Shown here piece after piece: positions 1 to 10,368 of a stretch of 15,507 nucleotides of DNA. The number at the start of each line of letters is the position of its first letter. Positions within the stretch are counted from its first letter, which is position 1. A program made the position numbers and the translations under genes. The notes beneath the pieces were generated by a model. That model searched no databases. It was not told where the DNA came from and was given only the letters and a program-made list of their open reading frames with translations. Source of the DNA: a virus (lineage: Duplodnaviria > Heunggongvirae > Uroviricota > Caudoviricetes); IMG/VR virus record IMGVR_UViG_2778261457_000008, positions 1 to 15,507 of that record; one strand, 5' to 3'.

Positions 1-1248
1 ATGGCACTGAATATTCCATTCAGAAATGCGTACTATCGTTTTGCATCCAGTTACTCATTTCTCTTTTTTATTTCCTGGTCGCTGTGGTGGTCGTTATACG
101 CTATTTGGCTGAAAGGACATCTAGGGTTGACAGGGACGGAATTAGGTACACTTTATTCGGTCAACCAGTTTACCAGCATTCTATTTATGATGTTCTACGG
201 CATCGTTCAGGATAAACTCGGTCTGAAGAAACCGCTCATCTGGTGTATGAGTTTCATCCTGGTCTTGACCGGACCGTTTATGATTTACGTTTATGAACCG
301 TTACTGCAAAGCAATTTTTCTGTAGGTCTAATTCTGGGGGCGCTATTTTTTGGCTTGGGGTATCTGGCGGGATGCGGTTTGCTTGATAGCTTCACCGAAA
401 AAATGGCGCGAAATTTTCATTTCGAATATGGAACAGCGCGCGCCTGGGGATCTTTTGGCTATGCTATTGGCGCGTTCTTTGCCGGCATATTTTTTAGTAT
501 CAGTCCCCATATCAACTTCTGGTTGGTCTCGCTATTTGGCGCTGTATTTATGATGATCAACATGCGTTTTAAAGATAAGGATCACCAGTGCGTAGCGGCA
601 GATGCGGGAGGGGTAAAAAAAGAGGATTTTATCGCAGTTTTCAAGGATCGAAACTTCTGGGTTTTCGTCATATTTATTGTGGGGACGTGGTCTTTCTATA
701 ACATTTTTGATCAACAACTTTTTCCTGTCTTTTATGCAGGTTTATTCGAATCACACGATGTAGGAACGCGCCTGTATGGTTATCTCAACTCATTCCAGGT
801 GGTACTCGAAGCGCTGTGCATGGCGATTATTCCTTTCTTTGTGAATCGGGTAGGGCCAAAAAATGCATTACTTATCGGAGTTGTGATTATGGCGTTGCGT
901 ATCCTTTCCTGCGCGCTGTTCGTTAACCCCTGGATTATTTCATTAGTGAAGTTGTTACATGCCATTGAGGTTCCACTTTGTGTCATATCCGTCTTCAAAT
1001 ACAGCGTGGCAAACTTTGATAAGCGCCTGTCGTCGACGATCTTTCTGATTGGTTTTCAAATTGCCAGTTCGCTTGGGATTGTGCTGCTTTCAACGCCGAC
1101 TGGGATACTCTTTGACCACGCAGGCTACCAGACAGTTTTCTTCGCAATTTCGGGTATTGTCTGCCTGATGTTGCTATTTGGCATTTTCTTCTTGAGTAAA
1201 AAACGCGAGCAAATAGTTATGGAAACGCCTGTACCTTCAGCAATATAG
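1..1248 (+). CDS. cscB: Sucrose:H+ symporter, LacY-family oligosaccharide/H+ symporter (MFS); host flank
   Basis: 415-aa ORF with about 12 hydrophobic segments; N-terminus MALNIPFRNAYYRF and the GIVQDKLGLKK loop match my recollection of CscB/LacY; csc loci are known to lie beside argW. Confidence 0.8.
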   Translation: MALNIPFRNAYYRFASSYSFLFFISWSLWWSLYAIWLKGHLGLTGTELGTLYSVNQFTSILFMMFYGIVQDKLGLKKPLIWCMSFILVLTGPFMIYVYEPLLQSNFSVGLILGALFFGLGYLAGCGLLDSFTEKMARNFHFEYGTARAWGSFGYAIGAFFAGIFFSISPHINFWLVSLFGAVFMMINMRFKDKDHQCVAADAGGVKKEDFIAVFKDRNFWVFVIFIVGTWSFYNIFDQQLFPVFYAGLFESHDVGTRLYGYLNSFQVVLEALCMAIIPFFVNRVGPKNALLIGVVIMALRILSCALFVNPWIISLVKLLHAIEVPLCVISVFKYSVANFDKRLSSTIFLIGFQIASSLGIVLLSTPTGILFDHAGYQTVFFAISGIVCLMLLFGIFFLSKKREQIVMETPVPSAI

Positions 1249-1301: not shown

Positions 1302-1689
1302 TAATAATAGTAAAATGCTTAGCCCTGCTAATAATCGCCTAATCCAAACGCCTCATTCATGTTCTGGTACAGTCGCTCAAATGTACTTCAGATGCGCGGT
1401 TCGCTGATTTCCAGGACATTGTCGTCATTCAGTGACCTGTCCCGTGTATCACGGTCCTGCGAATTCATCAAGGAATGCATTGCGGAGTGAAGTATCGAGT
1501 CACGCCATATTTCGCTATCAGGATTCTGTGTGATGGTTACATCGCCCGGCCCAGGGCTGTTTAGTCATCAGCGCTTTCTGACAGTGCTGAGATTTCAACC
1601 TGTTGCAGTAAAAATGAGTAGATATAAGGCAAGTGTGCTGCCAAACCCATCTTTTACGGGGTGAAGGTAGATTTCGTTTGAAGGGTATC

Positions 1690-1704
1690 TGGTGTCCCCT
1701 GCAG
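1690..1704 (-). mobile_element. Attachment-site core: 15 nt equal to a tRNA 3' end (T-stem 3' half, acceptor stem, discriminator, CCA); recalled as argW
   Basis: Minus strand reads CTGCAGGGGACACCA; it lies between the host cscB flank and the first phage gene; no complete tRNA is present in the window. Confidence 0.6.
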
Positions 1705-1777
1705 ACATCTACTTGACGCGGCAGGGGATTGATTAGAATGGTGTTTTTTAGGTGTGAGAAATATTTTACCCGCTATT

Positions 1778-1978
1778 TTACCCATTGGCGCGGCTTAAGA
1801 GCTTATTTTTGAATTCACAATGGTCACGATATAACCATCTTGCTCGCCCGTGGATAACTTTGGCTTTAGGCAGGTCGCCGGACTTAATCCGGTCATAGAT
1901 GAAGGTTTTACCGAAGCCAGTATCGGCCATGATGAATTTCAAATCAACCAGTGAATCAGGCTGTAGTTCGTGTTGCAT
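1778..1978 (-). CDS. torI: Excisionase / recombination directionality factor, AlpA-Xis winged-helix family (TorI-like)
   Basis: 66-aa product MQHELQPDSLVDLKFIMADTGFGKTFIYDRIKSGDLPKAKVIHGRARW…; GGAG 9 nt upstream of this ATG; the track's upstream ATG at 1993 has no SD; position next to att without int matches KplE1-type layout. Confidence 0.7.
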   Translation of the reverse strand: MQHELQPDSLVDLKFIMADTGFGKTFIYDRIKSGDLPKAKVIHGRARWLYRDHCEFKNKLLSRANG

Positions 1979-1995
1979 GAGTGCTATCTCCAAAT

Positions 1996-2013
1996 AGGGA
2001 ATCGAACCTGCAA
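1996..2013 (-). repeat. tRNA T-arm fragment (minus strand TTGCAGGTTCGATTCC) that continues the same tRNA as the 1690-1704 core
   Basis: 16-nt match to variable loop + T-stem 5' half + T-loop; the T-stem 3' half is missing here and is found at 1700-1704. Confidence 0.5.
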
Positions 2014-2020
2014 ATCAGGC

Positions 2021-2043
2021 AATAAAAAACCGCCATCAGGCGG
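2021..2043 (-). terminator. Intrinsic terminator on minus strand (stem CCGCC/GGCGG, loop TGAT, then TTTTTTATT)
   Basis: Hairpin plus U-run read from sequence; overlaps the stop of the 55-aa gene and lies just upstream of torI. Confidence 0.5.
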
Positions 2044-2203
2044 TTTGGTGTTCTTTCAGTTCTTCAATTCGAATATTGGTTACGTCTGCATGTGCTATCT
2101 GCGCCCATATCATCCAGTGGTCATAGCAGTCATTGATGTTCTCTGCTTCGATAACTCTGTTGAATGGTTCTCCATTCCATTCACCTGTGACTCGGAAGTG
2201 CAT
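2036..2203 (-). CDS. Small hypothetical prophage protein (55 aa), missed by the ORF track (<60 aa)
   Basis: ATG at 2203 preceded by GGAG with 7-nt spacing; open frame MHFRVTGEWNGEPFNRVIEAENINDCYDHWMIWAQIAHADVTNIRIEELKEHQTA; terminator follows. Confidence 0.5.
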   Translation of the reverse strand: MHFRVTGEWNGEPFNRVIEAENINDCYDHWMIWAQIAHADVTNIRIEELKEHQTA

Positions 2204-2361
2204 TTATCATCTCCATAAAACAAAACCCGCCGTAGCGAGTTCAGATAAAAGAAATCCCCGCGAGTGCGAGGATTGTTATTGTCTTTTCTTCGTGCATTTG
2301 TCGCACTTTCGGCACCATCCAGATAGGCACATCCGTCCGCAATTAACACATATAGGCCACA

Positions 2362-8026: not shown

Positions 8027-8608
8027 ATGAACAACTCATGGTGGCAGGAACTAATGCATTTTTTCCTGCAAGGAATGACACTTAAACAGTTGATTCATAT
8101 GCTAATCATCCTAATCATATTGATTATTGTTATGCCTGTAAGCGTAAAAGAATGGATAAACCTGCATAATCCAGAAATCCTTCCTCATTACTGGATGTAT
8201 TACATCCTGTTGTTTTGCGTTAGCTATGTGCTTAACGGCGTTGTTAATTCCGCTTATCACGCTGTGACTGAAAGAATTGAGATATTCGCTGCTCAGAAGC
8301 GCAAATCTAAAGAAGAGAAATACGTGCAAGATTTGTTTGATTCGTTAACTCTTGGAGAAAGAGCGTATTTGGCATTCGCTGTAGCCGCTAATAACCAGCT
8401 AAAGACAGAAAAGGGAAGCCCTGAAGCAATCTCATTGCTCGAAAAAGGGCTTCTTATTCGGGTACCTTCTGCTACTGGATATCCTGAAATCGACCGTTTT
8501 GTTATCCCGGAACGCTATAGAAATGAGTGCTACATTAGGTTTGCTGGGAAGAAAGACAGTCTTATGGATGAACTTATCGCTCAGGATAAGCATGGCAAAA
8601 ACAAGTAA
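8027..8608 (+). CDS. sieB: Superinfection exclusion protein B-like membrane protein
   Basis: 193 aa; N-terminal hydrophobic helices then a soluble domain; opposite strand from its neighbours next to N, as for sieB in lambdoid and Rac prophages; family call is from memory. Confidence 0.55.
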   Translation: MNNSWWQELMHFFLQGMTLKQLIHMLIILIILIIVMPVSVKEWINLHNPEILPHYWMYYILLFCVSYVLNGVVNSAYHAVTERIEIFAAQKRKSKEEKYVQDLFDSLTLGERAYLAFAVAANNQLKTEKGSPEAISLLEKGLLIRVPSATGYPEIDRFVIPERYRNECYIRFAGKKDSLMDELIAQDKHGKNK

Positions 8609-9004: not shown

Positions 9005-9045
9005 TCCCGCATTTCGGCGGGACAATCCCATCAATGTTAAAGAGC
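9005..9045 (-). promoter_or_regulatory. nutL: boxA (GCTCTTTAA) followed by boxB hairpin (CCCGC CGAAAT GCGGG)
   Basis: Read on the minus strand between pL and N; the boxB sequence is identical to the one at nutR. Confidence 0.55.
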
Positions 9046-9091
9046 CTGCCAATCTGTTCCGTTTGGCTACCAGCGTCCTGCTGATGGCTAA

Positions 9092-9132
9092 AGAATACTG
9101 TAGGTATTTTATTGTGTAAATACCCAAGGTAT
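9092..9132 (-). promoter_or_regulatory. pL with OL operators
   Basis: Minus-strand -35 TTTACA (9115-9120) and -10 TATTCT (9092-9097) with 17-bp spacer; operators ATACTGTAGGTAT (9095-9107) and ATACCCAAGGTAT (9120-9132) overlap them. Confidence 0.55.
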
Positions 9133-9651: not shown

Positions 9652-10368
9652 TCAAACCAGCCTTAGTTTTGTCTCAATTGCAACGCCTATAATCTTGCAG
9701 TTTCCATTGATTGGCACGAGAGGCCATGCAGGATTAAGTCCCTTGAGGTATTTATTTCCGCCGTCGATTATCAGCTTCTTGAATGTTGCTTCGTTAGAGT
9801 CAGAAAGTTTTGCTATGACCAAGCTGCCGTTGATCGCCTCCCTTCCGGTATCGAAAAGAACGAATGTTCCCTCTGGAATGCTTAACCCAACCGGTGCCGT
9901 CATTGAATCACCTTCCACTTTAAGCCAAAACGCATTACCTTGAATATGCGCGTCAGACTCAAGCCAAACATCTATGTCTTTAATGGTGTATGGTTCGCAT
10001 GCTTCACACCACGAGCCAGCCTGGATACTGCTTAACACCGGATACCTCTTTCCTGCTCTGTATTCCCCTGCATACCTTACGTTGGCATCGCTCTTAAGGC
10101 TTTCTGCCTGTTCTGCAACCTTGGCAGCAATTGACTGGCTAAAATCAGCAATTGAGACTTGCAACAATCGTGCAAAACCAGATGCAACCTCAACGTTTAG
10201 CGCGTTTCTGCCATTAAGATAATGCCCTACCGCTCCTTGGGTGATACCAAGTTCATCAGCGATTGAGTATTGGGTTATTCCCAATTCTTTCTTTTTTGAC
10301 TCATACAAAGCCTTAAGACGCTTAGCGTCTTCGAGCTGTTCTGTCGTCAGTGATTTTTTATTTTCCAT
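9652..10368 (-). CDS. cI: CI-type prophage repressor (HTH + S24 LexA-like autocleavage domain)
   Basis: 238 aa; N-terminus LTTEQLEDAKRLKALYESKKKELGITQ and C-terminal FWLKVEGDSMTAP…FKKL closely parallel lambda CI; divergent from cro across operators. Confidence 0.9.
   Translation of the reverse strand: MENKKSLTTEQLEDAKRLKALYESKKKELGITQYSIADELGITQGAVGHYLNGRNALNVEVASGFARLLQVSIADFSQSIAAKVAEQAESLKSDANVRYAGEYRAGKRYPVLSSIQAGSWCEACEPYTIKDIDVWLESDAHIQGNAFWLKVEGDSMTAPVGLSIPEGTFVLFDTGREAINGSLVIAKLSDSNEATFKKLIIDGGNKYLKGLNPAWPLVPINGNCKIIGVAIETKLRLV

Follow-up and report, generated by a model that had tools for sequence, protein, structure and literature searches.

The window analysed here (the whole stretch of 15,507 nucleotides) runs from bacterial chromosome into an integrated phage genome. 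From about position 1700 to its right end, it corresponds to the early region of a lambdoid P22-like prophage, with exo-xis-type small genes, DUF4752, Ead/Ea22-DUF551, a Rad52-family recombinase, kil, an N-like antiterminator and sieB. An S24/LexA-type repressor, cro-like and cII-like regulators and replication genes are also found in this region. The features present around the attR end of the prophage, which is its right-hand end, are listed below.

1-1248, plus strand: cscB, host MFS permease for sucrose/oligosaccharides, forming the chromosomal flank next to the prophage (Pfam LacY_symp, E = 1.3e-193)
1249-1689, no strand: host intergenic DNA, which abuts argW in prophage-free strains (from the rebuilt empty site)
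1654-1785, minus strand: small ORF resembling hkaB / Sf6 gp17 and crossing the att core, its C-terminus replaced by host sequence
1690-1704, minus strand: attR core CTGCAGGGGACACCA, a 15/15 match to the 3'-terminal 15 nt of the tRNA-Arg(CCU) gene argW
1763-1783, minus strand: two direct repeats GGGTAAAAT, 3 nt apart and overlapping the torI stop codon, as seen in the sequence
1978 to 1778, minus strand: torI, excisionase or recombination directionality factor (RDF) of 66 aa, stop codon 1778-1780 included (PDB 1Z4H)
1988-1991, minus strand: Shine-Dalgarno motif GGAG, 9 nt 5' of the torI ATG, read from the sequence and conserved in diverged loci
1998-2013, minus strand: T-arm-like box TTGCAGGTTCGATTCC between T-run and Shine-Dalgarno motif, the same 16 nt as those directly preceding the att core in argW
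2010-2022, minus strand: TTGC-N5-TTGC, cII binding site of a putative pI according to the HK620 record
2021-2046, minus strand: intrinsic terminator with stem, loop and T-run (hairpin 2046-2027), homologue of the predicted t5 of lambda
2036-2203, minus strand: orf55 homologue, 55 aa, last gene of the exo-xis region (phrog_676, E = 1.5e-39)
2223-2274, minus strand: two tandem terminator-like hairpins (2274-2253 and 2242-2223) upstream of orf55, homologues of the predicted t3 and t4 of lambda

The junction between host and phage could be located to the nucleotide. Homology with the free phages Kapi1, HF4s, N7, Sf6, HK620 and others (97-98% identity) begins exactly at position 1690, and none of the free-phage records has any match to the left of it. 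The att core, which an initial annotation had placed at the prophage end, is the 3' end of argW. It is present as a single copy in the window, with 0 matches expected from 200 shuffles, and it corresponds to the attP core annotated in the HK620 and Sf6 records. A core of 16 nt, CTGCAGGGGACACCAT, has been described for KplE1 (PMC2951348); the window shares 15 of these nucleotides, and its 16th base is a G coming from the host flank, where KplE1 has a T. The empty site was rebuilt by joining positions 1450-1689 of the window to an intact argW, and the resulting 315-nt construct is matched over its whole length, at 100% identity, by many E. coli genomes; 2621 of 5426 match it with at least 80% coverage. 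Because the core is unique and the rebuilt empty site exists intact, the match is not a chance one and the prophage boundary is 1689/1690. The two ways in which the initial annotation might have gone wrong at this point, a fortuitous core or a boundary lying elsewhere, are thus set aside.

On the host side of the junction, the homologue of 1-1248 is annotated as cscB or as an oligosaccharide MFS transporter in related E. coli genomes. No tRNA gene was detected in the window by ARAGORN, as expected for attR, and none is present in 16 related loci. Positions 1690-2050 are the attR end of a P22-like (Lederbergvirus-type) prophage, which has the csc sucrose genes as neighbours and is inserted in the argW 3' end. 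One small ORF crosses the core. Up to the core its translation is that of HkaB from HK620, save for one substitution, and it diverges beyond; the hkaB gene of the HK620 record also spans the attP core. It is doubtful whether this ORF is a real gene.

The phage gene adjoining attR points towards the core, with its stop codon 74 nt away from it. Its 66-aa product is identical over its full length to TorI, the 'Tor inhibition protein' (PDB 1Z4H; E = 6.6e-43), and torI is also the name given by RefSeq to the homologous gene in E. coli genomes. The presence of an RDF gene beside the att site, as initially proposed, could thus be confirmed and the gene given its name. This identification came from a search of PDB sequences rather than from Pfam, in which only a weak, sub-threshold HTH_17 match was obtained, or from NCBIfam, which gave no match for the RDF. 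For KplE1, experiments have established TorI as the excisionase, and it is active on HK620 substrates as well (PMC2951348; PMC3509656). The two GGGTAAAAT repeats at the end of the gene are kept in all diverged loci that retain the att junction, across genera. They include the TAAA motif common to the arm-type sites of IntS (PMC2951348 section 8), and an attP repeat is annotated at the equivalent position in the HK620 record. Considering this motif, they are probably the arm-type integrase sites of the P arm.

The initial annotation had also pointed out that the window holds no integrase gene, and a tblastn search with IntS indeed gave no integrase in the window (best E = 0.65). The window stops 13.8 kb into the prophage. 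In E. coli SRY149, the closest complete relative, the order is yfdC, tRNA-Arg argW, intS, a P22-like prophage of about 40 kb, torI and cscB. This genome covers 69% of the window at 98% identity, which is the best coverage by any E. coli genome and results from mosaicism. The order in K-12 KplE1 is argW and intS at one end, then torI, attR (pawZ) and dsdC at the other. An integrase next to an intact tRNA gene at the far end of the prophage, as had been anticipated, is thus seen in both relatives. The attP core is annotated between int and the torI homologue in the HK620 and Sf6 records. A layout with attP between the RDF and integrase genes has been stated explicitly (Panis 2010, PMC2951348), and Kapi1 is described as having attP between int and xis 'like these phages', so that the two genes come to lie at opposite prophage ends (PMC8787464). 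All this supports the assignment of the present module to the KplE1/HK620/Sf6/Kapi1 group, in agreement with the layout suggested initially. With attP lying between torI and intS, integration separates the two genes, torI being left at attR and intS at attL. By analogy with these relatives, intS is expected outside the window, about 40 kb away, next to the argW gene regenerated at attL.

Upstream of torI, the hairpin 2046-2027 has a GC-rich stem of 8 bp (AAACCGCC/GGCGGUUU), a UGAU loop and a UUUAUUG tail, with a folding energy of -13 kcal/mol and a z-score of -3.3 relative to shuffled sequences. The hairpin sequence covers part of the 55-aa ORF that lies upstream (2203 to 2036), including its stop codon, and precedes the torI start by 50 nt. 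The terminator given initially as 2021-2043 is therefore real as regards hairpin and T-run, with coordinates off by about 3 nt, and its position just upstream of the RDF gene, at the end of the leftward operon, was rightly described; it lies on the correct strand for this operon. The 55-aa product shares 54 of its 55 residues with lambda lambdap35/orf55. Further upstream, the tandem hairpins at 2223-2274 fold at -25.4 kcal/mol (z = -4.5). A qualification is needed here, in that the terminator is not special to the argW layout: the same hairpin is found between orf55 and xis in lambda.

The conservation of this element was surveyed at two depths. The scan of viral contigs gave only 100%-identical E. 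coli copies of TorI, and the hairpin was examined in 80 IMG/VR loci encoding this identical protein. The lambda-t5 hairpin is present in 53 of the 80, and another hairpin with an unrelated stem, CCGCA-TCAA-TGCGG, in 24. An intact hairpin thus lies at the exact position in 77 of the 80 loci, the remaining three having the decayed version of K-12 KplE1, which folds at only -2.9 kcal/mol. Diverged loci with TorI homologues were collected by scanning genome contigs from other genera (85% protein identity). Yet other GC-rich stems precede the T-run/ATTGCCTG in Enterobacter, Citrobacter, Dryocola and two metagenome bins. Such a stem is not seen everywhere, the loci of Edwardsiella, Pantoea and Serratia having no obvious hairpin at this site. 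The occurrence of different stems at one fixed place argues for a terminator directly upstream of the RDF leader being maintained by selection, and it supports the idea, put forward in the initial annotation, that the RDF gene is insulated from early-left transcription. The hairpin also moves with orf55 in lambda-type phages with an unrelated xis, and it could perhaps be simply the end of the orf55 unit. In a Stx1a phage with lambda-type xis-int, for example, homology to the window stops right after the T-run. A comparison with Rfam gave sub-threshold matches only, to STnc130 (34 bits, the gathering score being 55), STnc420 and isrK. The hairpin is the best-aligned stretch in the STnc130 and STnc420 alignments, and the literature naming STnc130 provides no context.

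How torI could be expressed from such a position depends on the early-left control elements, which lie at some distance in the window.

8897 to 8625, minus strand: N-like antitermination protein whose N-terminus is rich in arginine (phrog_271 'anti-termination protein N-like', E = 9e-34)
9005-9045, minus strand: nutL-like site between the pL-like promoter and N, read from the sequence, with boxA GCTCTTTAAC (9045-9036) and a boxB-like hairpin CCCGC-CGAAAU-GCGGG (9021-9006); its features resemble those of lambdoid nut sites
9092-9120, minus strand: putative pL-like promoter TTTACA-17-TATTCT, found by consensus scan in the interval separating N from the repressor operon
9652-10368: LexA/S24-type repressor

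At least five terminator-like sites are found on the minus strand between pL and torI (7814-7793, 4903-4886, 2274-2253, 2242-2223 and 2046-2027). In the scheme that we propose, torI would be the last gene of the leftward early operon, and transcripts initiated at pL, the presumed source of torI mRNA, would have to cross several intrinsic terminators, the last one being the hairpin just before the gene. This hairpin presumably terminates transcription in vivo, and together the terminators would stop stray transcription during lysogeny. Once the repressor is lost, the N-like protein acting at nutL would override them and let the polymerase read through; TorI synthesis would thereby be linked to induction, and excision with it. 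Such an N-dependent readthrough from pL would be the ordinary explanation for a lambdoid phage. IntS is produced in KplE1 at a constitutive, low and autorepressed level, and excision is triggered and limited by TorI (Panis 2010, PMC2951348); excision limited by the RDF has been described (PMC2951348; PMC3509656). With integrase constantly available at a low level and TorI limiting, readthrough by N would couple excision to induction. The searchable literature yielded no measurement of terminator function or of N-dependence for this phage group, and nothing relevant on a torI promoter or on readthrough. Taken as a whole, the reading that combines the attR end, the module layout and the control of torI by pL and N readthrough appears to us very probably correct.

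Two other explanations deserve to be weighed against it. TorI-bearing remnants are very common, part of the region being matched in 4168 of 5426 complete E. coli genomes, and the KplE1 element of K-12 is only about 10 kb long. Since TorI was first identified through its inhibition of the response regulator TorR (PMC3509656), the region might be imagined as a similar non-functional remnant, in which the att core and torI are relics and TorI serves only as a regulator of the Tor system. However, the early-left, immunity and replication genes of the window are uninterrupted, including those for N, kil, the Rad52-family recombinase, the S24 repressor, cII and the replication protein. Moreover, the nearest relatives are P22-like prophages of about 40 kb with intS and all morphogenesis genes, and the free phages Kapi1, HF4s, N7, HK620 and Sf6 share the module at 97-98% identity. 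Even KplE1 itself excises when given TorI (PMC2951348). A decayed state thus looks highly improbable.

The other explanation concerns the control of torI, which might be transcribed mainly from a promoter of its own between the hairpin and the Shine-Dalgarno motif, at the position of pI or PtorI; a promoter of its own had been named as an alternative in the initial annotation too. The terminator would then merely end the orf55 / exo-xis unit, and the timing of excision would be set by cII, TorI itself, IntS or a host factor rather than by N readthrough. A 'phage integration' promoter with a cII site is indeed annotated in the HK620 record, where features 1664-1702 and 1689-1701 map to 1985-2023 and 2010-2022 of the window, and the Sf6 record has a putative pI at the equivalent position. 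The second TTGC lies 13 nt from a -10-like hexamer (TATTCG/TATTTG), which is the spacing from TTGC to -10 known for pI and pRE of lambda. However, the TTGC tetrads are N5 apart instead of the canonical N6, the second one is not conserved in genera other than Escherichia, and a consensus scan detected no sigma-70-like promoter between the hairpin and torI. Transcripts started from this -10 would begin at or after the Shine-Dalgarno motif and would thus make an int message, not a translatable torI message; the synthesis of an RDF from a promoter devoted to the establishment of lysogeny would also be counter-productive. On the other side, an uncharacterised PtorI is drawn in Figure 1 of Panis 2010 (PMC2951348), and a strongly conserved box with a TorI-type pentamer sits exactly there, as would be expected for an operator. 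The putative pI of the HK620 and Sf6 records, or the PtorI drawn in Panis 2010, could supply torI mRNA independently of pL, but a predominant role of such a local promoter seems unlikely to us, and N-dependent readthrough from pL is retained as the preferred mechanism.

The box mentioned above is possibly the one new item at this locus, and no description of it was found in the searchable literature. The sequence TTGCAGGTTCGATTCC has a single match in the window, for 0.01 expected even when 2 mismatches are allowed. It lies about 30 nt 5' of the torI start codon and includes the pentamer GTTCG. Of 22 loci with TorI homologues, taken from different species, 12 have the octamer GGTTCGAT of this box at -29/-30 from the start codon (-36 in Serratia). 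When eight diverged enterobacterial lineages are aligned, GGTTCGATT[C/T]C is invariant and its flanks are diverged. At its synonymous positions, the adjacent gene of these same lineages shows only 52-70% identity to E. coli, which indicates that the box is under constraint. In attL, the five sites of TorI have been defined experimentally by the pentamers GTTCG, GATCG and GTCCG (PMC2951348 section 8). A second such pentamer is present in several lineages 13 nt downstream, where it overlaps the Shine-Dalgarno motif. Four other species have a second integrase gene, P4-like, after torI-attR, and GGTTCGAT occurs again just upstream of the start of this gene. It can also be observed that the 3' part of argW appears in two pieces in the phage, separated by torI and the P arm.

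A general reading of the box as an RNA hairpin mimicking the T-arm was rejected, since it is the sequence that is conserved and not the pairing: a T-arm-like stem folds in Edwardsiella, P. stewartii and Serratia, while none forms in E. coli, Enterobacter or Citrobacter. The reading as a cII site is weakened by the N5 spacing and by the poor conservation of the second TTGC discussed above. It is conceivable, although on balance doubtful, that the invariant element is a functional operator or RNA element rather than a tRNA scar. Our best guess is that it may be an operator for the RDF, involved in TorI autoregulation, the alternatives being a core-type half-site for IntS or an evolutionary scar. 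If such a function were true, TorI, or IntS through a core-type, attB-like half-site, would bind its own leader, providing feedback on the RDF at the step where excision is decided. The motif recognised by the RDF would then have evolved from the T-loop of the tRNA used for attachment, or would imitate it. The box could provide a new and easily testable regulatory site.

Apart from this box, the finding amounts to the correct annotation of an arrangement familiar to specialists. It fixes the boundary at 1689/1690, names the RDF as TorI and predicts the place of the integrase, which helps in practice to delimit the prophages of csc-positive E. coli. It further recalls that the supply of RDF alone governs excision in this module. 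Since a terminator is kept before torI under several unrelated stems and is decayed only in the defective KplE1, it brings modest support to the view that transcription termination acts as a safeguard of lysogeny in this group. This termination theme is said to have already been published for KplE1 by Menouni and colleagues (2013, in PNAS), who reportedly found torI to be restrained by Rho-dependent termination and not by an intrinsic terminator. Every element of the initial reading, including the terminator before the excisionase gene, is already known from KplE1, HK620, Sf6, Kapi1 or phage lambda.

One close parallel is KplE1 (CPS-53) of E. coli K-12, which uses the same attachment site at the 3' end of argW with the same core, encodes a 100% identical TorI, and has its integrase and RDF at opposite prophage ends. 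Near-identical as well are the stretch between T-run and ATG, the leader, and the probable arm-type repeats that overlap the torI stop codon. In contrast, KplE1 is a defective remnant of 10 kb without repressor, N or pL; its hairpin stem 5' of torI is decayed, and its host flank is dsdC instead of cscB.

The P22-like phages HK620, Sf6 and Kapi1 (Lederbergvirus) share the order xis(torI), attP, int, as well as 97-98% identity over 1690-2083 of the window or further, and a matching hairpin upstream of the RDF gene. The genes upstream of this hairpin differ because of mosaicism: an eaG-like hkaD is found in HK620 and gene 19 in Sf6, whereas Kapi1 and the window have the orf55 homologue.

The exo-xis / xis-int region of lambda provides a further counterpart. 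Its Xis is unrelated in sequence to TorI, its xis and int genes are adjacent, overlapping and co-transcribed, with attP beyond int, and its homology with the window stops right after the T-run. The predicted terminators t3, t4 and t5 of this region (Bloch et al. 2014, PMC4195576 Table 4) nevertheless occur in the same order as in the window, with t5 immediately before the excisionase gene. The same logic is followed in lambda, where the RDF is the distal gene of an N-antiterminated pL operon.

Ahead of the torI leader, the recombination module meets variable upstream DNA in a mosaic joint located within the terminator. At least five unrelated stem sequences are found at this one hairpin position among the loci compared, namely 80 IMG/VR loci encoding an identical TorI (L032-L111) and five loci with TorI homologues from other species (L011, L012, L014, L015 and L029), and every stem type precedes an identical T-run followed by ATTGCCTG. 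The features of this region, in window coordinates, are as follows:

1654-1785, minus strand: putative 43-aa ORF, homologue of HK620 hkaB and Sf6 gp17, spanning the att core
1998-2013, minus strand: box TTGCAGGTTCGATTCC in the torI leader, identical to the argW T-arm immediately 5' of the att core
2021-2046: terminator hairpin before the torI leader
2036-2274, minus strand: orf55 homologue and its flanking terminators

The T-arm-like box keeps a nearly constant position, lying at -29/-30 from the ATG of the TorI homologue in L011-L021 and L029, with the exception of L013 (-36). Across eight diverged lineages its core, GGTTCGATT[C/T]C, shows no variation; the TorI-site pentamer GTTCG lies within this core. 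The box may be an operator for TorI (or IntS) within the torI leader; no description of it was found in the literature searched. Just 5' of the SD, at position 1992 (minus strand), the window departs from the other five E. coli-type sequences in the alignment by carrying T instead of C (TATTTGG versus TATTCGG), and a second sequence close to a TorI-type pentamer (ATTCG) is thereby lost. A T is also found at the equivalent position in a few IMG/VR loci.

On the opposite strand, positions 1928-2055 (plus) give a sub-threshold Rfam match to the STnc130 sRNA family, scoring 34 bits where the gathering score is 55 (E about 0.001-0.005). This stretch overlaps the torI leader and the beginning of the gene in antisense and ends at the hairpin, read in the opposite direction, which is also the best-matching part of the displayed alignment.

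At the att core itself, integration replaces the last 11-14 codons of the putative hkaB-like ORF by host-derived sequence. In four other species (L009, L017, L020 and L030), a second, P4-like integrase gene directly follows torI-attR, about 270-470 nt beyond the TorI-homologue start, which suggests tandem elements at a shared tRNA site. The att core is truncated in L009 and L020 (…GGGGACAAT / …GGGGGCAAT). The likely start of the P4-like integrase is preceded, at a distance of about 30-50 nt, by a GGTTCGAT box, which in L017 and L030 sits between GGGGCA and TGCCCC repeats.

Two further features belong to the early-left region:

8027-8608, plus strand: superinfection-exclusion gene, sieB type (phrog_1301, E = 6e-124)
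9005-9120, minus strand: pL-like promoter and nut-like elements

Repeats of the AATACC…GGTATT type lie on both sides of the pL-like promoter, which is followed by boxA GCTCTTTAAC, a boxB-like hairpin whose 6-nt loop reads CGAAAU, and an N-like gene with a product beginning MAVVITYLADDNARNRRRARRQAQ. The sieB-type gene, just downstream of the N-like gene, is oriented against the leftward operon enclosing it.

The orf55 homologue (54/55 aa identical to lambda orf55) is flanked by lambda-like predicted terminators, with homologues of t3/t4 upstream and of t5 downstream. This compact terminator-orf55-terminator cassette is also present in lambda and Stx phages. In the defective K-12 prophage KplE1, the hairpin ahead of torI is of the second E. 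coli stem type, in decayed form.
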